From the NCBI GenBank assembly GCA_963771175.1, contig CAVYSY010000005.1, positions 1 through 64,000 on the forward strand: a DNA stretch of 64,000 bases, read 5' to 3'. Within the stretch, counting starts at the first letter, position 1, and the number at the start of each line of letters is the position of its first letter. Source of the DNA: an uncultured delta proteobacterium. Lineage in GTDB: Bacteria > Myxococcota > Myxococcia > Myxococcales > Myxococcaceae. Below are positions 31,458 through 56,065 of this stretch, in pieces. The position numbers and the translations under genes were made by a program. The notes under the pieces were generated by a model. That model saw only the letters and a list, made by a program, of their open reading frames with translations. It was not told where the DNA came from and did not search any database.

Positions 31458-32681
31458 GTGAGCGAGCGCACGAGGTGCCAGGGAGCGGGGAGACGTGTGG
31501 CCTCGTACGGAGGAGGCGCGTGCGGGCTCCTCGTGCTGCTGGGCCTGGTGGTGCTCGTGGGGTGCAAGCGAGGCGGGTCGGCGCCCCAGCCCCAGGAGCA
31601 GGCACCGGTGGAGCTCGGGCCGGAGGACGTGGTGCGCGTGGAGCCGCGCGAGCTGCGGAGCGGGCCCGTCCTCTCCGGCACGCTCCAGGCCCGGCGCGCC
31701 GCCACCATGCGGGCCGAGGTCCAGGGCGCCGTGCTGGAGATGGCCGTCGAGCAGGGCCAGCGGGTGAAGAAGGGCCAGCCCCTCGCGCGCATCGAGGCGC
31801 TCGCGCTGGAGGACCAGTACCTCGCCGCGCGCACGGCGGTGCAGGTGGCGCGCAACGGCGTGGAGGTGGCCCGTGTCGAGGAGGCGCGCAACCGCAAGCT
31901 GGTCGACGCGGGCGTCATCACCCGGCGCGACTATGAGCGGGCGGAGCTCGCGCGCCGGCAGGCCGAGGCGCAGCTCTCCGAGGCCAGGGCCCGCATGGCG
32001 CTCTCGCGCAGATCAGGTGGACCGCACCCGCATCCGCGCCCCCTTCGACGGGGTGGTGAGCGAGCGCCACGCCAGCGCGGGTGACATCGTCCAGCCGGGC
32101 GCGCCGCTCTACACCGTCATCGACCCCACCAGTCTGCGGCTGGAGGCCTCGGTGCCGGCCTCGCAGCTCGAGACGCTGAAGCCCGGGGCCCGCGTGGACT
32201 TCTCCGTCAGCGGCTATGGAGACCGCACCTTCCAGGGCCGCATCGAGCGCATCAATCCCGCGGTGGACCCGGCCACCGGCCAGGTGCGCCTCTACGTCGC
32301 CCTCCCCAACACCGAGCAGTCGCTGCTCACCGGGCTCTTCGCGGAGGGCCGGGTGGCGGCGCTCCGGCGCGAGGTGCCCGCGGTGCCCGTGTCCGCGGTG
32401 GACACGCGCGCCGAGCCTCCCGCGGTGCTGCGGGTGAAGGACGGCCGGGTGGAGCGCGTGGGCGTGACGCTGGGCCTGACGGACGACATCGCCCAGTGGG
32501 TGGAGCTGCGCTCCGGCGTACAGCCCGGGGACGTGGTGCTGAGGGGCTCGGCGCGGGACCTGGCCGAGGGCACCCGCGTGGAGCTGCGGCTGCCCGAGCA
32601 GCCCAGGAGCCGGAGCCGGGCGTGGGCGGTGCCGGCACTCCGCCGGTCCCGGAGCAGCCCCAGGAGTCCGAGCCCCACTGA
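31458..32681 (+). CDS. RND efflux periplasmic adaptor (membrane fusion protein); frameshifted
   Basis: Lipobox LVGC; GQRVKKGQPLARI; IRAPFDGVV; RINPAVDPAT. Confidence 0.9.
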
Positions 32682-32715
32682 GTCCCGCGCCCACCTTCAT
32701 CGAGGGAGAGCTCCC

Positions 32716-35700
32716 GTGTTCATCTCCGACTTCGCCATCAAGAAGCCCATCGTCACCATCACCGCCATGTTGGCGCTGGTGGTGTTCGGCCTGGTGGCGC
32801 TCGCTGGTGCTGCAGACGGACGAGTTCCCGGACATCCAGCAGCCCATCATCAACGTCACCATCGCCTACCCGGGCGCCTCGCCGGAGGTGGTCGAGCGCG
32901 AGGTGGTGGAGCCCGTCGAGGACGCCCTCTTCAGCATCAGCGGGGTGGACGCCGCGAAGTCCACCTCCAGCGCCACGGACGGCCTCGCGCAGTTCACCGT
33001 CTTCTTCGACTACGAGAAGGACCTGCAGCAGGCGTCCCAGGACGTGCGCGACGCCATCTCCAGCAAGCGCAACGACCTGCCGCTGGAGATGGAGGAGCCC
33101 GTCCTCACGCGCTTCGATCCGGCGGACCTGCCCATCATCTCGCTGGCCATCACCTCGGAGACGCTGCCGGCCACGGCGCTCACCCGGCTGGTGGACCCGG
33201 GCATCGTGGGCGAGCTGCGCTCCATTCCGGGCGTGGCCCAGGCCTCGGTGGTGGGCGGCATCGAGCGGGAGATGACGGTGTTCAGGTGCGCCCGGTGGCG
33301 CTGCAGGCCGCGGGGCTGAGCATCGCGCAGGTGGTGCAGGCGCTGCAGGCGCAGAACCTCGCGGCGCCGGTGGGCCGGCTGGACGGGCCGCTGGAGGAGA
33401 CGCACCATCCGCCTCAAGGGCCGGCTGGAGACGCCCGAGGACTTCGCGCGCGTCGTCATCGCCGAGCGCGGCGGCCGTCCCATCCGCCTCGGCGCAGGTG
33501 GCCCAGGTGTTCGACGGCACCGAGGAGCCGCGCACCCTGGCGCTCTACAACGGCGGCGAGGCGGTGGGCATCGACATCCTCAAGGCCAAGGGCTACAGCA
33601 CCACCGAGGTGGCCGACGCCGTCCGCGAGCGCGTCGCCGAGCTCCAGCAGCACGCTGCCCGCGGGCGTGAAGCTGGAGATGGTGCGCGACGCGGGCGTGC
33701 GGGTGGAGCGAGGCGGTGGAGAACGTGCAGGGCGCGCTGCTGGAGGGCGCGCTGCTCACCGTGCTGGTGGTGTTCCTCTTCCTCAACTCGTGGCGCTCCA
33801 CGGTGATCACGGGCCTGGCGCTGCCGGTGAGCGTGCTGGCCTCCTTCATCAGCGTGTGGGCGTTCGGCTTCACGCTCAACACCATGTCGCTGCTGGGCCT
33901 CGTCGCTGGCCATCGGCATCCTCATCGACGACGCCATCGTGGTGCGCGAGAACATCGTGCGCCACATCGAGCTGGGGAAGGACCACTACACGGCCTCGCG
34001 CGAGGGCACGAGCGAGATTGGCCTCGCGGTGGCGGCGACGACGTTCTCCATCGTGGCGGTGTTCGTCCCGGTGGCCTTCATGTACGGGGTGGCCGGGCAG
34101 TGGTTCAAGCCCTTCGCCCTCACCATCGCGTGCTCGGTGCTGGTGTCGCTCTTCGTGAGCTTCTCGCTGGACCCGATGCTCTCGGCGTACTGGCCGGACC
34201 CGGCGGTGGAGCAGGGGGCGCGCAAGGGCCCCATCTCGCGGGTGCTCGTCGCGCTTCAACCACTGGTTCGACCGGCAGGCGGACCACTACAAGCGCGTCA
34301 TCGCCTGGGCGCTGGACCACCGGCTGGCCATGGTGCTGTTGGCGGTGGGCTCGCTGGTGGGCGCGCTGGTGCTCCAGGCCACCCTGGGCGGGGCGGGCTT
34401 CGTCCCGGTGAGCGACCGCGCGGAGATTGAGATGCTGGTGGAGACGCCCGCCGGGCTCCAGCCTCGACTACACGCGGCGCAAGGTACGCGAGGTGTCCCG
34501 CCTCGCGCGCGAGCCACCCGGAGGTGGCGTACACCTTCACCACCATCGGCACGCCGCTGCCGCTGCGCTCGCCGGGCGTGGACCAGGCGCTGGTGTACGT
34601 GCGGCTCGACGCCCAAGGCGAGCGCGAGCTGAGCCAGGAGGAGCTCGGCGTCATCCTGCGACAGGGAGATGGCGCGCGTGGCCGGGGCGAGGGTGTCCGT
34701 CTTCACCAGCGGCTTCGGCGGAGCCTTCAAGGCGATTCAGTTGGAGCTGCGCGGGCCGGACGCGCGGGAGCTGTCGCGGCTGGCCGAGCAGGTGCGCCGC
34801 GAGGTGGAGCAGGTGCCGGGCGCGGTGGACGTGGGCCTGTCCACGCGCGGGCAGAAGCCGGAGGTGGAGGTGGAGGTGGACCGCGGCGTGGCGGGCCGGC
34901 TCGACGTGACGGTGGGCCAGGTGGCGCAGGCGCTGCGCGCGGCCTTCGCGGGAGTGGACTCGGGAGACTGGGTGGACCCCTCGGGCGAGACGCGCGACGT
35001 GGTGGTGCGGCTGGTCCCCGAATCCGCGCATGCGCCCGAGTGACCTGGTGCAGACTCCCCCTGGTGGCGGGCGCGGGGCCGGACGGCACGCCGGCGCTGG
35101 TGCCCCTGGGGCAGGTGGCGCGCATCCGCGAGACGGTGGGGCCCGCTCAAATCAACCACCTCAACCGCGAGAGGGTCATCAACGTGCAGGCCAACGTGCA
35201 GGGGCGCTCGCTGTCGGAGGTGATGACGGACATCCGGGCGCGGATGGCGCAGGTGCGGCTGCCGCCGGGCTACGAGCTGAGCGAGGGCGGCGAGGCTCGC
35301 GACCAGGCCGAGGTGTTCGGCCGCGTCTTCCTCGCGCTCGCGGTGGCGGTGCTGCTGATGTACCTCATCCTGGTCATCCAGTTCGGCTCGTTCCTGGACC
35401 CGGTGGCCATCCTCGTCTCGCTGCCGCTGTCGCTCATCGGCGTGGTGCTGGCGCTGCTGGTGACGGGGGACACGCTCAACATCATGAGCCTCATCGGCGT
35501 CATCCTGCTGATGGGGATTGTCGCCAAGAACGCCATCCTGCTCATCGACTTCGCCAAGTGGGCGCATACGCGGGGCAAGCCGATGCGGGAGGCGCTCATC
35601 GAGGCGGGGCGCATCCGCCTGCGGCCCATCATGATGACGACGTTCGCCCTCATCGCCGGCATGGTGCCGGTGGCGCTGGGGTTGGGAGAGGGCGGCGACT

Positions 35701-35894
35701 TCCGGGCGCCGCTGGGACGGGCCGTCATCGGCGGCGTCATCACCTCCACGCTGCTGACGCTGCTGGTGATTCCGACGGTGTACGAAATCCTCCACGACGG
35801 GCGCACCTGGGCGATGGGCAGGCTGCGGCGCACCCTGGGGCCCGGGGAGCACAAGCCGGTGCCTGGTCCGCCCCAGGCTCGGCCGGGGGCGTGA
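32716..35894 (+). CDS. RND efflux permease (AcrB/MdtB family); many frameshifts
   Basis: [62 protein letters not shown]. Confidence 0.92.
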
Positions 35895-43744: not shown

Positions 43745-45689
43745 ATGCCCCGCGCAACCCTGCCCGAAGACTACCGGCGACACGTGACGGCGGCCCTGGC
43801 CGCGCTGAACGTGCGCAACCTGGTGCTGAGCATCCACGACCCGAGCTTCCCGAGCGCCCCGGCTGAGGACATCGGCCGTGGCTCGCCGTACTCGGAAGGG
43901 GGCATGCGCTTCCTCGAGTTCGCGCGGGAGCTGGGCTTCAATGGCATCCAGCTCGGCCCGCAGGGGCAGACATCGGAGGACAACCCCTCGCCGTACGACG
44001 GGACGCTCTTCTCGCGGAACGCGCTGAACGTGGCGCTCGCGTCCCTCACGCACGAGGAGTCCTGGGGCGGCCTGCTGCGGCCCGAGCACGTGCAGGCCCT
44101 CGTCGCGTCCCGGCCCGGCGGTGGCGAGTCGCGAACGAAGCACCGCTACGCCTTCCGAGCCCAGAGCGAGGCGCTGGAGGAGGCGTGGGTCACCTTCCAG
44201 CAAAAGCGGGCCCGGGCCATGCCGGGCAGCGCCATCGCCTGGCTGGCCGAGCACTTCGACACCTTCCGGCGCGAGCACCACGAGTGGCTGGAGCGGGACG
44301 CGCTCTATGACGCGCTCTGCATCGAGCACGGGCGCCCCTACTGGAAGGAGTGGCCGAGCGAGTGGGACAGGCGGCTGTGGAGCCCGCGCGCGGGTGAGGA
44401 GGTGACGTTCACCCAGCGCCGACACGTGCTGCTGGCGAAGTACGCCGGGCAGGTGGAGGCCCATGCCTTCCGGCAGTTCCTGGTGCACTCGCAGCACGCG
44501 GCGCTGCGGGAGCGGACGGTGGCCTGGGGCCTGAAGCTGTACGGGGACCTGCAGATTGGTTTCTCGCCGAAGGATGCGTGGGCGCACCAGGGGCTCTTCC
44601 TGGGCTCGTACCTGATGGGAGCGCCGCCCAGCCGTACCAACCCCGAGGGTCAGCCGTGGAACTACCCGGTGTTGGATCCGGCGCAGTACCGCGCGCCGAA
44701 CGGAGCGCCGGGCCCGGTGCTGGGGTTCATGGCCTCGCGGGTGAACAAGATGCTGTCCGAGTACGACGGACTGCGCATCGACCATCCGCACGGGCTGGTG
44801 TGCCCGTGGGTGTACCGCTCGGGAGAGCTGGATGCGCTGCGCGCGGTGCAGAACGGGGCGCGGCTCTTCTCCTCGCCGGACCTGCCGGAGCACCCGGAGC
44901 TGGCGCGCTGGTCCATCGTTGCGCCGGGGCAGCTCGACCGCATCGGTGCCGCGCTACGCGGATGGCTGGGTGCGCGAGCTGAGCCCTGCGCAGGTGCGTC
45001 GCTACAGCGCTCTCTTCGATGCCATCATCACGGCGGCGCATGCCCACGGGCGGAAGGTGTCGGACCTGCTGTGCGAGGTGTTGAGCACCATGCCCCATCC
45101 GCTGCAGCGGGTGCTGGAGCAGTACGGGCTGGGGCGCTTCCGGGTGACGCAGAAGGCGGACCTGACGAACCCGCGGGACGTGTACCGGTGCGAGAACGCC
45201 GCGCCCGGGGATTGGATCATGGTGGGCAACCACGACACGAAACCCATCTGGGCCCTGGCGGACCGCTGGCGGCAGGCGGGCGAGGCGCGTGCACAGGCGG
45301 ACTACCTGGCGTGGAGGCTCCACCCGGAGGAGGAGGGGCGCGAGGACTTCGCGCGGCGGCTGGTGGAGGAGCCGGGGTTGCTGGTGCAGGCGAAGTTCGC
45401 GGACCTGTTCGCGAGCCGGGCGGAGAACGTGATGGTGTTCTTCGCGGACCTGCTGGGGATGAAGGAGACGTACAACGCGCCCGGCACGGTGAGCGAGGAG
45501 AACTGGAGCCTCCGCGTGCCCAACGACTACCGGCGCGAGTACGCGGAGAAGCTCCAGGGCGATGCCGCGTTGAACCTGCCGAAGGCGCTGGCGTTGGCGT
45601 TGCGCGCGGGCGGAGAGGAGGCTCGCGCGCGACACCAGGGGCTCATCACGGCGCTGGAGCGGCTGGCCGCGGAGCTGCAACTCGGGTGA
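43745..45689 (+). CDS. malQ: 4-alpha-glucanotransferase (GH77); frameshift near 44940
   Basis: SPYDG, LYGDLQIG, GAPP...GQPWNYP, GLRIDHPHG, GNHDT, YNAPGT...NWSLR. Confidence 0.85.
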
Positions 45690-50056: not shown

Positions 50057-50237
50057 CGGCAAAAAAAATGGGGAATGTCTCGTTTGGAAGCGAGACATCC
50101 CCCATCACTGCGACCTCGACCTCACTGCCTTCCCCTCCTGCGGGCAGGAGTCGTCGGGTCGTCAGCCCTGGAACCCGGCCCCCGCCGGACTCCCGGGCTG
50201 GCCCCCCGGTGCAGGAGGGGGGCGAAACGCAAAAGCC

Positions 50238-50694: not shown

Positions 50695-50898
50695 GGGCTC
50701 CTCCCCCCCTTGGCACGCCCGTGAGCGCGTGAGTGACGCGGGGGATAATGGCCAATCCCTGATCGGGAGTTTTCCGCTCGGACGCCAACCGCTTGCGTAT
50801 GAGCGCCAAGCAGATGCGGAGCCCCGAAACGCGTTTCACGGGGGCGATCAAAATTCACGCACAGTGCCTGCTCGCTCGCTCCACGAGCGGACATTTTT

Positions 50899-50915
50899 GC
50901 TGAACGGCCTTGCAG
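50899..50915 (-). promoter_or_regulatory. Candidate myxobacterial LexA (SOS) box
   Basis: Minus strand CTGCAAGGCCGTTCAGC matches CTRHAMRYBYGTTCAGS at 16/17 positions; 53 nt before the topB start. Confidence 0.7.
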
Positions 50916-50968
50916 GTAGGAGGCGGCATGTAGGGGTATGGTCGTGTCCGTTGGACGCGCTATGAGGG

Positions 50969-53900
50969 ATGACCATGGGTGACGGAGGACGGGGCGTGCT
51001 GGCCGTGGTGGCGGAGAAGCCATCCATGGCGCGCGACATCGCGCGGGCGCTGGGGGCTCGCGAGCAGGGCGAGGGGTGTTACCGGGGCAACGGCTACGTG
51101 GTGACGTGGGCCATCGGGCACCTGGTGGGACTGGCGCAGCCGCACGAGATGCGGCCCGAGTGGAAGCGCTGGCAGCGCGAGCTGCTGCCCATGCTCGCCG
51201 CGCGACTGGCCGCTGGTGGTGGAGGACAAGACGGCCTCCCAGTTCCAGGTGGTGCGCCGGGTGATGACCTCGCCCGAGGTGGACGCCGTGGTGTGCGCCA
51301 CGGACGCCGGGCGCGAGGGCGAGCTCATCTTCCGCTACATCTACGAGGCCGCCGGGTGCCGCAAGCCGGTGCGGCGGCTGTGGGTGAGCTCGCTGACGGA
51401 GGGGGCCATCCGCGAGGGCTTCCGCGCGCTGAAGCCGGGGCGCGACTACGACGGGCTGGCGGACGCGGCCAAGGGGCGCAGCCGGGCGGACTGGCTGGTG
51501 GGGATGAACCTGTCGCGCCTCTACACGCTGGCGGGCGGGGACACGCTCTCGGTGGGTCGGGTGCAGACGCCCACGCTGGCCATGGTGGTGGAGCGCGAGC
51601 TGGCCATCCGCGACTTCGTCCCCAAGGAGTACCTGGAGGTGGTCGCCACCTTCGGCCCGGCGGGCCCCGAGGGGCCCCAGGGCAGCTACCAGGGCACCTG
51701 GTTCCGTCCCGCGGAGCCGGGCAAGGAGAAGGAGTGGGACTCGCGCGAGGCCCGGCGCCTGCCCGCGGACGGTGTGGAGGCGAAGGCGGTGGTGGCGCGC
51801 GTGCGAGGCGGGCCGCGCGGCCGTGGAGTCCGTCACCGCCGAGACGAAGCGGATGGCGGCGCCGCTGCTCTACGATCTGACGGAGCTGCAGCGCCACGCC
51901 AACCGCCTGTACGGCTATCAGCGCCCAGCGCACCCTGGAGCTGGCGCAGGCGCTGTACGAGAAGCACAAGCTGTTGAGCTACCCGCGTACCGCCAGCCGG
52001 CATCTCTCGCAGTCGGTGGCGGAGACGCTGCCCGAGGTGGTGCGCGCCATCCGCGGGCCCTGGGAGGCGCTGCTCGCGCCCGGCACCGGGCAGAAGCCCG
52101 CTGGGGCGCCGCTTCGTGGACGACGCGAAGGTGACGGACCACCACGCCATCATCCCGACGACGACCTCGCCCGAGGGCGCGAGCGCTCTCCCAGGACGAG
52201 CGGCGCATCTACGAGCTCGTCTGTCGTCGGCTGCTGGCGGCGTGGCACGAGGACTTCGTCTGGTTGGTGACGACCGTCATCACCGCCGTCACCTCGCTCG
52301 CCGCGAATGGGGGCTCGCCCGTGGTGGACCGCTTCCACAGCGCGGGCACCATGGTGGAGCGCGAGGGCTGGAAGGTGCTGGACGTCGGGGGAGGGCAGCG
52401 TGCCCCGAAGTCCCGCGAGGCGGGGAAGAAGAAGGAGGGCGAGGCCGAGGCGGAGGAGCCCGAGGACGAGCAGGAGCTGCCGCCGGGGCTGACGAAGGGG
52501 CTGGCGCGTGCGGTGCGCGAGGTGAAGCCGGTGACGAAGCGGACGCGGCCCCCGCCTCGCCTCACGGACGCGAGCCTGCTCACGGCGATGGAGACGGCCG
52601 GGCGGGCGCTGGACGACAAGGAGCTGGCGGACGCGATGCGCGGAGTCGGGGCTGGGAACGCCCGCCACGCGCGCGGCCATCATCGAGACGCTGCTCGACC
52701 GTGGCTACCTGGTGCGGCGGGGCAAGGCGTTCGAGGCGACGGAGAAGGGCATCGGGCTCATCCGGGTGGTGCATCCGGACGTGAAGAGCCCGGCGATGAC
52801 GGGGCAGTGGGAGGCGCTGGCTGCAGCGCATCGAGCGCGGCAGCGGAGACCTGGACTCCTTCCTCCGGGGCATCGAGGCCTACGTCATCGAGGTCGTGGG
52901 CAAGGTGCCCCCCTCGCTTCCCATGCCTCCTCCCACCACGCCGCTGCTCCCGGCGGGAGCTCCGCGTGAGGCCGCGCACCCCGTGTCCAAACCCAGGAGC
53001 ACCCGGGCTCCCAGCAGCACCCGGGCTCCCAGCGAGCCGACTCCGGCCTCCAGGTCATCCCGCAAGAATGCCGTGCTCCCCCTCGCGAACACCGTCCGGC
53101 CCGAGCGCACGCCCCGCGCGCCCACGCCACCGGAGGCCCTGCGCGGATTGCTGAAGGAGGTGTTCGGCTTCTCGGACTTCCGGCCGTACCAGGAAGCGGT
53201 GTGCCGCGCGGCGACCGAGGGCAAGGACCTGCTGCTGGTGATGCCCACCGGAGCGGGCAAGTCGCTCTGCTACCAGCTGCCCGGCCTCGCGCGGGCGGGC
53301 ACGACGCTCGTCATCAGCCCGCTCATCGCGCTGATGGAGGACCAGGTGGCGCGGCTGCAGTCGCTCGGGCTGGCGGCCGAGCGCATCCACTCGGGACGGG
53401 ACAGGGCCACGTCGCGCCAGGTGTGCGCGGACTACCTCGAGGGCCGGCTGGACTTCCTCTTCATCGCCCCCGAGCGGCTCGGGGTGCCCGGCTTCGTGGA
53501 GCTGCTGGCCCGGCGCACGCCCTCGCTGGTGGCCGTGGACGAGGCGCACTGCATCTCTCAGTGGGGGCACGACTTCCGCCCGGACTACCGGCTGCTGGGC
53601 ACCCGCCTGCCGATGCTGCGCCCCGCGCCCGTCATCGCGCTCACCGCCACCGCGACCCCGGACGTGCAGCACGACATCGTCCAGCAGCTCGGGCTCCAGG
53701 GACCGCGAGACAAGCCCGCGCGCACCTTCATCCACGGTTTCCGGCGCACCAACATCGCCATCGAGGTGCGCGAGCTCAACCCGAGCCAGCGCGGCGACGC
53801 CATTCGCGAGCTGCTCGCCGAGCCCGAGCACCGTCCGGCCATTGTCTACGCCTCCACGCGCAAGCACGCGGAGCGGTACGCCGAGGCGCTCGGCGCGGAC

Positions 53901-55331
53901 TTCTCCACCGGCATGTACCACGCGGGCATGAGCGCCTCGGATCGCGACGCGGTGCAGTCGGCGTTCCTCGGAGGCCGGCTGGAGGTCATCGTCGCGACGA
54001 CGGCCTTCGGCATGGGCATCGACAAGGCGGACGTGCGCACCGTGGTCCACGCCGCGCTGCCGGCCAGCCTGGAGGGCTACTACCAGGAGCTGGGCCGCGC
54101 GGGCCGCGACGGGAAGCCCTCGCGCGCGGTGCTGCTGCACTCCTTCATCGACCGGCGCACGCACGAGTTCTTCCACGAGCGCGACTACCCCGAGCCCTCC
54201 GTCCTCGAGCGCCTCTACCGGGCCGCCCGCGACGAGCCGGAGCCCAAGGAGTCCCTCGCGGCCCGGGCGCGCGTGGCGTCGGATACCTTCGACAAGGCGC
54301 TCGAGCAGCTCTGGATTCACGGCGGCGTGGAGGTGACTCCAGACGAGTCCGTTCGCCGTGGGCGGCCGGGCTGGGCGGCCTCGTACTCGGCGCAGCGCGA
54401 GCACAAGCAGTCACAGCTCGACCACATGGCCCGCTACGCCGAGTCCCACGGATGCCGCATGCGGCACCTCGTGGCGCACTTCGGTGACCTGCAGGACTCG
54501 GGGGCGGCGTGCGGCCTGTGCGACGTCTGCGCGCCCGAATCCTGTGCCACCCTGCGTTTCGGCGAGCCCTCCGCCACCGAGGCCCAGGCACTCGCGCGCA
54601 TCCTCGGGGCGCTCCACGAGCGCGATGCCCAGGCCACCGGCCGGCTCCACCGCGAGCTGTTCGGCGAGGCGCTGCCACGACGTGACTTCGAGCGGCTCCT
54701 CGGGGGTCTCGTGCGCGCCGGGCTCGTGCGTCTGTCCGAGGACACCTTCGAGAAGGATGGTCAGAACATCACCTTCCAGCGCGTGACGCTCACGCCCGAG
54801 GGCCGGCGCACGCACGAGCCCGCTCCGGGGCAGGTGCAACTGCCACGGGCTCCGGACGAGGCCCCCGCGCGCAAGCGCCGCGGCTCGAAGGCCAAGGGCT
54901 CGCGGACCAAGGTCTCCAAGGGGGGACGCACGCGCCGGACCTCACGCGGGAAGGCCGCCGATTCCTCCACCACCTGGTCGAAGGTCGAATACGAAGGGGA
55001 CATGGCGGAGCCGGTGGCGGCGCCTCGCGCCCCTCGTGGCCGGGAGGCCCTCGCGCGGGCGCTGGAGCGCTCCAGGCGCAGCGGGGCGACGCTCGGTGTG
55101 GGCTCGGCCTCGCCCCGACTGGTGGAGGCCCTGCGCTCGTGGCGGCTCAACGAGGCCCGCAGGCGCCGCGTGCCCGCCTTCCGCATCCTCACCGACGCGG
55201 TGCTCGGCGCCATCGCCACCGCGTGCCCTCGGGACGGCGCGGCGCTCCAGCGCATCCACGGTGTGGGCCCCAAGCTGACCGAGCGCTACGGCGACGCCAT
55301 CCTCGCGCTCGTCGGCCACGAGTCGCCCTGA
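50969..55331 (+). CDS. topB: DNA topoisomerase III - RecQ helicase fusion; frameshifts confined to the topoisomerase half
   Basis: AEKPS, TWAIGHL, ATDAGREGELIF, GRVQTPTL, SYPRT, DHHAIIPT, GLGTPATRA, TGQWE; then MPTGAGKS, DEAH, QELGRAGRDG, CGLCDVC and an HRDC domain. Confidence 0.88.
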
Positions 55332-55486
55332 GGCCCCAGTGCCCGTTGGACAACCCTCGTCCCGGCGGGGGGTGGTATTGCCATCTCGGTTTATGAGAAG
55401 GTGAGCATCCGTTCTCGACGCGAGCGGGGCTCTGCCGCAGGAGTCGCTTTCCTTGCTGGTGCCGATGAGGTGCCGAGGGGGCCGTC

Positions 55487-56065
55487 ATGCCGCTGGAGAA
55501 ACTGGTCTTCGCCTCGACGGTCGAGTCGCTGTTCGTCCGGCAGCTCGGGGCGAGGTGGTCCCCCCACGACCGGGAGCGGCTGGCGGAGGCGGGGCTGGAC
55601 CTGTCGCGGCCCCTCGCGGTCTCCTACCCGCTGGAGCAGTGGAAGACTTTCGTGCGCATCGCCGCCGAGGCGCTCTATCCGCGGCTCTCTCCCGTCGAGG
55701 CGCATCGGTGGATGGGCATCCACTTGCTGGAGGGCTACCTCCAGACGTTCCTGGGGAGCATGGTGGCGGAGCTGGCTCTGGCGCTGGGCCCGCTGCGCAC
55801 GTTGGAGCGCGTCGGGCAGGACTTCCGCAGCGGCAACAACTTCAGCGAGGTGCGGGTGGTGGAGCTCTCGCCCCGTCACATCGAGCTGTGGATGAACGAC
55901 GTCCTCTGTGAGCACCCCTCCTTCGCGGCGGGCTTCATCCTCCGGACACAGCATGTGGCCGGTGCGCGCGGCGCCTTCGTGGACGTGCGCTCCTTCGATG
56001 GCACCGCCTGCACCTTCGACGTCCGATGGCGGGAGGCCATCGTCCCCCAGGCCCTCAACGGCTGA
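55487..56065 (+). CDS. DUF2378 / TIGR02265-like Myxococcales protein
   Basis: EKLVFASTVESLF...RLAEAGLDL...YPLEQW...FRSGNNF pattern. Confidence 0.8.
   Translation: MPLEKLVFASTVESLFVRQLGARWSPHDRERLAEAGLDLSRPLAVSYPLEQWKTFVRIAAEALYPRLSPVEAHRWMGIHLLEGYLQTFLGSMVAELALALGPLRTLERVGQDFRSGNNFSEVRVVELSPRHIELWMNDVLCEHPSFAAGFILRTQHVAGARGAFVDVRSFDGTACTFDVRWREAIVPQALNG

Follow-up and report, generated by a model that had tools for sequence, protein, structure and literature searches.

A 64,000-nucleotide (nt) stretch of DNA from an uncultured myxobacterium (contig CAVYSY010000005.1 of assembly GCA_963771175.1; the whole stretch is called the window here) contains, at positions 50969 to 55331 of the plus strand, coding sequence for a topoisomerase III (Topo III) followed by coding sequence for a RecQ helicase. 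The question raised by this locus is whether the two belong to one working polypeptide, given that the upstream half is interrupted by changes of reading frame. We found that the region is the Archangium copy of a single gene of about 1451 codons in the order Topo III, linker, RecQ, and we consider it likely that this gene is intact and functional, that it encodes a single-chain Topo III-RecQ enzyme, and that the frame breaks are errors of the assembly.

The original prediction, made from the DNA letters, held that the last helix of the type IA topoisomerase core reads without a stop into a Pro/Ser/Arg-rich linker of about 75 residues and then into RecQ, that the frameshifts all lie upstream of this junction and do not create the fusion, and that the corrected protein would have about 1450 residues. 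All of this was borne out. The reading frame of the RecQ half (frame 0) is free of stops from 52803 to the stop codon at 55331, the helix WLQRIERGSGDLDSFLRGIEAYVIEVVGKV is found exactly at 52818-52907, and the linker that follows it measures 75 residues (52908-53132). There are seven frame changes, all in the topoisomerase half and 5′ of the junction, and the last of them, at 52816, falls at residue 614 of 1451. Pfam searches gave DEAD, Helicase_C, RecQ_Zn_bind and HRDC matches in frame 0 and pieces of Toprim and Topoisom_bac in the frames upstream. The start codon is either ATG 50969 or ATG 50975, of which only the one at 50975 is kept in 12 of 12 aligned relatives. The G+C content is 72-74% across the whole fusion-gene region.

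The frame breaks were evaluated by alignment with the orthologous DNA of a same-genus genome (G011), which is 93.6% identical to the window. The alignment showed single-base insertions at 51196, 51804, 51918, 52097, 52184, 52641 and 52816 and no other frame-breaking insertions or deletions in the gene; relative to G011, each of the seven changes adds one base, and there are no deletions among them. Every one of the seven bases is also missing from each of the contigs of three public sequencing runs from two studies (X1, X2 and X3), and these accurate contigs have no stop between the two domains. The X1 contig (14,015 nt) spans positions 50800-55105 and differs from the window there by 48 substitutions and by seven gaps exactly. 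When the seven bases are left out, the result is a stop-free frame of 1451 residues that is 94.2% identical to the G011 protein, with 619 of 645 residues (96%) identical in the topoisomerase half and 690 of 730 in the RecQ half. The ratio of nonsynonymous to synonymous substitution rates (dN/dS) in comparison with G011 was 0.25 for the topoisomerase half, 0.72 for the linker and 0.15 for the RecQ half. Because these values are unlike those of a decaying gene, decay is unlikely.

Damage of the same type was found elsewhere in the assembly. A gene for an AcrB/AcrD/AcrF-family RND pump (window 32627-35878, plus strand) is intact in G011, where it encodes 1084 residues, and broken in the window by 12 single-base insertions and one 2-base insertion within 2.3 kb (32802-35052), an insertion-only pattern like that of the Topo III half. 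On contig C26 of the genome to which the window belongs (G000), a RecQ-family paralogue is split over two adjoining frames (G000:C26:129642-130812; query residues 95-302 and 307-489), which is probably another assembly frameshift. Further single-base insertions were seen in the window at 44942 and 46229, and G000 is rated 81.7% complete despite consisting of only 58 contigs.

A different explanation of the same frame changes is that this strain carries a true pseudogene, with real frameshifts and with perhaps only the RecQ part being made from an internal start such as GTG 52896. It is the case that the seven frame changes of the window as given are confined to the topoisomerase half and that a clean open reading frame (ORF) of 811 codons begins at 52896. 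Furthermore, the X1 contig, which is the nearest of the run contigs, may come from a near strain or other isolate and not from the window's own DNA, because of its 48 substitutions. We nevertheless regard a pseudogene as very improbable and have rejected it: insertions without a single deletion, absent from G011 and from three runs, leave an open corrected frame with a low dN/dS and a topoisomerase half closely matching that of G011, and the unrelated pump gene and the C26 paralogue are damaged likewise. In addition, the closed Archangium genomes G006 and G015 contain exactly two type IA topoisomerases, TopA and the fusion, and therefore the fusion is their sole Topo III. On these comparisons with a relative and with three runs, on the signs of purifying selection and on the similar damage to the pump gene, the seven frame breaks are best read as assembly errors and the gene as intact. 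This assembly thus has clustered single-base insertions that break real genes, and its apparent pseudogenes should not be trusted without polishing.

The fused arrangement is shared by relatives. In 14 of 17 same-genus genomes the orthologue lies in an open frame of 1452-1506 residues (81-92% identical) with no stop or change of frame at the junction; seven orthologues were read out as single ORFs, and two separate genes were not seen at this place. Of the three remaining genomes, two have the orthologue cut by contig ends and one, which is 73% complete, is without an orthologue. The 120 best database matches all carry topoisomerase as well as helicase Pfam domains (120/120). Their genera include Archangium, Cystobacter, Stigmatella, Hyalangium, Myxococcus (including M. 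xanthus), Corallococcus, Pyxidicoccus and Aggregicoccus, and relatives from the Thermoanaerobaculia and other Acidobacteriota are also among these best matches, at 58-62% identity.

The distribution was quantified in a survey of 300 further Myxococcota genomes, in which a match of at least 55% identity to the topoisomerase half was counted as an orthologue and a frame of at least 1200 residues as fused. An orthologue was present in 104 genomes, and in 92 of them it occupies one frame of this length (91 of 103 when the unpublished genome G216 is omitted). Nine of the 12 shorter cases were inspected, G045, G277 and G267 being left out. The short frame ends at the end of a contig in G303, G310 and G185, and the RecQ half sits at the start of another contig in G240, G246 and G283. 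In G018 the match begins 174 nt from a contig end, and no orthologue of the RecQ half was found in that genome. The other two inspected cases (G286 and G217) are weighed below. Outside the main sample, eight of eight full-length loci are continuous frames of 1262-1597 residues with the motifs of both halves, in records assigned to Solibacteraceae, Bryobacterales, Bryobacter, 'Acidobacteria bacterium', Oligoflexus (Bdellovibrionota), Bradymonadales, Polyangiaceae and 'uncultured proteobacterium'. An exhaustive search of representatives clustered at 50% identity gave 32 proteins of at least 1200 residues among the best 150; many of the 'short' database proteins end at contig ends, and the fused or unfused labels of database proteins are therefore unreliable.

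The linker differs in length from one member to another. Within the 18-bp repeat that it contains (Table 1), the X2 contig is 18 nt shorter at 52998, and so the length of the linker differs even between close strains. The distance from the last topoisomerase motif to the Walker A motif was 73-358 residues in 170 family members, with a median of 154; a spacing of 78-87 amounts to essentially no linker, and the family covers a range of about 0 to about 280 extra residues. Because the spacing varies over this range, what is conserved is the covalent link and not any particular spacer.

Judged by sequence comparison, the N-terminal 645 residues make up a complete TopB-type core of a type IA topoisomerase. 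Residues 13-639 align end to end with residues 4-601 of the E. coli Topo III structures 1d6m and 1i7d (E = 3.7e-83), a far stronger match than that to Topo I (E of about 1e-22 to 1e-25). The core ends at about residue 645; from there on the linker and RecQ take the place of the C-terminal tail that follows about residue 601 in E. coli Topo III. Among the NCBIfam models, NF005829 scored best with the G011 orthologue (P0001), giving 650.9 bits against a cut-off of 597, and TIGR01056 (topB) gave 542.3 bits against 515.75. One stretch of the core aligns with E. coli Topo III residues 502-519, the decatenation loop of that enzyme. The AEKPS motif and the catalytic tyrosine, which aligns with the Tyr of TYPRS in E. 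coli Topo III, are invariant in alignments of 19 and 12 fused proteins (A1 and A2). A Lys directly after the catalytic Glu, as in AEKPS, is what separates Topo III from Topo I (PMC10969213).

The RecQ half has the Walker A, DEAH and motif VI sequences that had been claimed for it, and an aromatic loop, HCISQWGHDFR, adjoins the DEAH motif. It scored 377.2 bits with the RecQ family model TIGR00614 (recQ_fam), above the cut-off of 219.8, and its core matched that of E. coli RecQ (1oyw) at E = 1.9e-83. Of the three further parts that had been assigned to this half, the zinc site and the HRDC domain were found by Pfam, and the zinc-site cysteines are invariant in alignments of relatives. The winged helix gave no Pfam RQC hit at E ≤ 0.01 in the RecQ frame, and it was an AlphaFold2 model of the C-terminal 414 residues (mean predicted local distance difference test score, pLDDT, of 72.4) that indicated its presence. 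The order in this model is a three-helix and hairpin insert, the zinc helices, the winged helix, a basic spacer predicted to be disordered, and HRDC. The insert comes after the helicase core and ahead of the zinc site, and it is also found in a stand-alone RecQ of 732 residues encoded by genome G028. Foldseek matched the model to BLM (4cdg, E = 4e-6, 336 alignment columns), and RECQ1 and bacterial RecQ cores also matched; the profile match to BLM covers query positions 104-381. For HRDC, the profile hits were 2ma1 (E = 2e-16), 2rhf and 1wud, and the Foldseek match to 1wud, the HRDC of E. coli RecQ, had a template modelling (TM) score of 0.90 and a root-mean-square deviation of 0.8.

Several points weigh against the reading of this locus as an intact gene for a functional single-chain enzyme. 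Fusion is not obligatory in the family. In G286 (locus L139, G286:C2:680800-687200) the two halves lie side by side in two frames that overlap, through either a frameshift or a genuine split, and in G217 (locus L138, G217:C41:31000-37000) the Topo III orthologue truly stops after 668 residues, with no matching RecQ half found when the G217 genome was searched. Conversely, in G028 and G021 this RecQ subtype stands alone, without a topoisomerase gene beside it, and these genomes have TopA only and no Topo III. The RecQ half also misses the recQ equivalog model TIGR01389, with 467.7 bits in three stretches against a cut-off of 640.2. Finally, the acidic Toprim motif TDAGREGE keeps the D...E pair and has Gly in place of the second Asp of the DxD found in E. 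coli Topo III. This substitution was considered as the mark of a dead topoisomerase and rejected, since DAG is present in 305 of 310 motif-bearing relatives, fused or unfused, and DxG is therefore best seen as a trait of the subfamily and not as a defect.

The stand-alone versions of each half that exist in nature and the two frames of G286 could also be taken to mean that the ORF is fused and yet gives mostly two proteins, through internal initiation or cleavage of the linker, with the fusion being only a device for co-expression. The poor conservation of the Pro/Ser/Arg-rich linker, as seen in its dN/dS and its range of spacing, would be in keeping with this. However, the frame is open over the junction not only in the 92 surveyed Myxococcota genomes but also in other phyla, no stop or frame change interrupts it in the 14 same-genus genomes, and the members with a spacing of 78-87 leave no room for either a cleavage site or a ribosome-binding site. 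It therefore seems quite improbable that two proteins are the main product, and we return to the single chain.

RecQ and Topo III are established partners, in which the helicase makes single-stranded DNA and Topo III passes strands (PMC2647321, PMC8185306). Because of this partnership, the intact catalytic motifs and the purifying selection on both halves, we infer a coupled activity for the fusion. Driven by ATP, RecQ would open duplex DNA at hemicatenanes, at double Holliday junctions and at forks that have stalled or are converging, and would thereby supply the single-stranded DNA that the type IA enzyme requires. The tethered Topo III would cut one strand, pass another and reseal, giving unlinking without crossover. 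The tether would keep the two activities in one place and at a 1:1 ratio, and may do the job that single-stranded DNA-binding protein (SSB) does in E. coli or that RMI1 and the N-terminal region of the helicase do in eukaryotes; the DNA-binding modules of RecQ may substitute for the missing C-terminal domain of the topoisomerase. The coupling of unwinding to strand passage and the substrates named here are proposed by analogy, which must be set against the reading of a working single-chain enzyme.

The likeness to known systems is partial in each case. E. coli RecQ and TopB, working with SSB, belong to the same enzyme families and have the same expected chemistry, but they are separate proteins, whereas here a single polypeptide begins with Topo III. 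In E. coli, Topo III has its own C-terminal tail and DPD in Toprim in place of the linker with RecQ and the DxG seen here, and E. coli RecQ is without the winged-helix-like insert of the present RecQ, which falls below the equivalog cut-off. The eukaryotic complexes BLM-TOP3A-RMI1/2 and Sgs1-Top3-Rmi1 likewise combine a RecQ-family helicase that has zinc, winged-helix and HRDC parts with a Topo III-type enzyme, and BLM (4cdg) is the best structural match to the corresponding part here. The eukaryotic dissolvasome assembles non-covalently, via the helicase N-terminus and RMI1, whereas the tether here is covalent; no RMI1-like partner with an OB fold was seen, although no search aimed at one was made. 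Among unfused bacterial relatives, the stand-alone RecQ of G028 is 48% identical across the whole helicase half, its match taking in the insert, the zinc site, the winged helix and the HRDC domain, and Topo III relatives of the PRK07726 type also have the TDAGREGE motif and are not joined to RecQ.

Reverse gyrase is the sole fusion of a helicase and a type IA topoisomerase discussed in the literature found, and one abstract states that hyperthermophiles have 'uniquely' fused these units, as reverse gyrase (PMC7245102). Reverse gyrase also shows, according to the abstracts of two papers, that a superfamily 2 ATPase joined to a type IA core can give a new activity (PMC7245102, PMC2504306), and by this example the main role of the fusion might lie elsewhere, in ATP-driven supercoiling, in the topology of R-loops or RNA, or in dealing with foreign DNA. 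The geometry of the linkerless members could be fixed, and the RecQ half has its extra winged-helix-like insert, both of which would suit such a role. We nevertheless think it improbable. The domain order is opposite to that of reverse gyrase, in which the helicase-like domain comes first, and the reverse gyrase model TIGR01054 gave 92 bits against a cut-off of 471.7. The helicase here is a full RecQ that has a zinc site, a winged helix and an HRDC domain, and the ATPase of reverse gyrase is not of this kind. Reverse gyrase belongs to hyperthermophiles, whereas the fusion family is found in mesophilic soil bacteria; its gene has a stable chromosomal place with housekeeping-type neighbours and no island, and a LexA-like site upstream points to DNA repair.

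No description or characterisation of a natural Topo III-RecQ fusion was found in the full-text literature searched. The prediction that such fusions would already be annotated automatically in myxobacteria proved correct, as the best database matches, named 'DNA topoisomerase 3' or 'RecQ', carry the domains of both enzymes; the family is thus in public databases under ordinary names and has apparently never been studied. In a M. xanthus proteomics study, two supplementary files contain no entry for 'topoisomerase III', 'topoisomerase 3' or 'topB', and the RecQ discussed in that study is locus 1950, which may be a protein other than the fusion (PMC12288472). What is new here is a further member of the fusion family, the demonstration that its damage is artefactual, and a candidate SOS operator.

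This operator is the 17-mer CTGCAAGGCCGTTCAGC, which has one mismatch to CTRHAMRYBYGTTCAGS, the LexA-box consensus of Myxococcus xanthus. The 17-mer is in the same place upstream of the fusion gene in eight of eight genomes of Archangium (genus g1) and four of four of its sister genus (g28), with 0-2 mismatches, and in these 12 aligned upstream regions it is a nearly invariant block within an otherwise diverged spacer. The same motif precedes lexA by about 64 nt in three of three genomes (G000, G006 and G011) and, in G006, recA by about 50 nt. The other side of the account is as follows. Genome-wide counts at no more than one mismatch exceeded those of a reversed control only modestly, with 11 against 7 in G000 and 16 against 4 in G006; the site and the gene are on opposite strands; a search of the 400 nt upstream of the gene in eight genomes of other genera found the site in none of them; and the consensus string did not occur in the literature searched, in a search that was poorly targeted. 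We tentatively regard the fusion gene as a probable member of the LexA (SOS) regulon in Archangium and the sister genus.

Other features of the upstream DNA were also noted. A second conserved block at about 50786-50826 (GGACGCCAAC.GCTTGCG ... GCGCCAA) is kept in 12 of 12 of the aligned Archangium and g28 regions, and a scan for sigma-70 promoters upstream of the gene gave nothing. In G006, a gene of the GyrA/ParC type is preceded, at a distance of about 150 nt, by a LexA-box-like 17-mer with one mismatch (locus L135, G006:C1:3948100-3951100), which may be due to chance.

A wider proposal is that RecQ is not merely tethered but replaces the C-terminal DNA-binding domain of Topo III, with a mechanical coupling between ATP-driven unwinding and the passage of strands. 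The fusion would then be a self-contained dissolvase or decatenase that needs neither SSB nor an RMI1-like partner, its linkerless members would perhaps bring about directional, ATP-dependent topology changes of their own, and DNA damage would induce it through LexA in Archangium and the sister genus. Taken as a whole, we regard this proposal as possible but rather unlikely.

As to the genomic setting, the fusion locus is not in an island. An MFS gene lies upstream, and genes for DUF2378, PLD-family and Rieske-domain proteins lie downstream. The DUF2378 gene (55487-56065; Pfam E = 1.1e-48) is directly 3′ of the fusion gene, where a segment of 709 bp (55346-56054) is absent from G011. Just past the upstream MFS gene there is a strong terminator-like hairpin (50067-50106; 16 pairs and then a T run on the minus strand), and the roughly 860 bp that separate it from the fusion gene contain no obvious ORF. 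Additional RecQ-family paralogues, at 38-47% identity, occur in the genus. In the RNA runs X17-X20, a fraction of only 0.05-0.07 of the sampled words was present. The coordinates of the gene and its parts are collected in Table 1.

Table 1. Positions in the window of the Topo III-RecQ gene, its parts and the candidate operator.
Feature	Position	Strand	Remarks
LexA-box-like 17-mer CTGCAAGGCCGTTCAGC, candidate SOS operator	50899..50915	-	about 54 nt upstream of ATG
Whole Topo III-linker-RecQ gene	50969..55331	+	1451 codons without the seven apparently spurious inserted bases
AEKPS, with the catalytic Glu of Toprim and, next to it, the Topo III-type Lys	51011..51025	+	invariant in A1 and A2
Stretch with seven apparently spurious single-base insertions	51196..52816	+	absent from G011 DNA and run contigs
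Toprim acidic motif TDAGREGE	51300..51323	+	DxG; DPD in E. coli Topo III
Catalytic tyrosine codon (in SYPRT)	51980..51982	+	invariant in A1 and A2; aligns with the Tyr of TYPRS in E. coli Topo III
Stretch aligned to E. coli Topo III residues 502-519	52591..52647	+	alignment with one 1-residue gap
Last helix of Topo III core, WLQRIERGSGDLDSFLRGIEAYVIEVVGKV	52818..52907	+	1d6m match ends here
Pro/Ser/Arg-rich linker, 75 residues	52908..53132	+	dN/dS 0.72
18-bp tandem repeat inside linker, 2.3 copies	52992..53033	+	encodes repeated STRAPS
RecQ helicase core	53133..54194	+	Pfam DEAD, Helicase_C; 1oyw E 1.9e-83
Walker A (MPTGAGKS)	53241..53264	+	
DEAH	53538..53549	+	
Motif VI (QELGRAGRDG)	54084..54113	+	
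Extra three-helix and beta-hairpin insert, winged-helix-like (predicted)	54195..54359	+	AlphaFold2 model residues 38-92, block pLDDT 86-96
Four-cysteine zinc site C-x18-C-x2-C-x2-C	54453..54530	+	Pfam RecQ_Zn_bind E 8.3e-10; aligns to 1oyw
RecQ winged helix, RQC-like (predicted)	54573..54791	+	AlphaFold2 model residues 164-236, order H-S-H-H-S-S, block pLDDT 84-92
Basic spacer, predicted disordered	54792..55115	+	pLDDT <50 over model residues 258-338; length varies in alignment
HRDC domain	55116..55313	+	Pfam E 1.4e-19

RecQ helicases and Topo III cooperate from bacteria to humans, and defects of BLM-TOP3A lead to Bloom syndrome. The way in which these enzymes couple unwinding with strand passage is still debated, in part owing to the transient, multi-subunit nature of the complexes. 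A natural single chain, under purifying selection in many soil bacteria that include the genetically tractable Myxococcus xanthus, would offer a system with a fixed 1:1 ratio for biochemistry, single-molecule work and structure determination, and the family would provide natural experiments in the form of linkers of none to about 280 residues, the split form in G286 and the helicase-less form in G217. The fusion also corrects the view, expressed in one abstract (PMC7245102), that only hyperthermophiles have joined these two functions.

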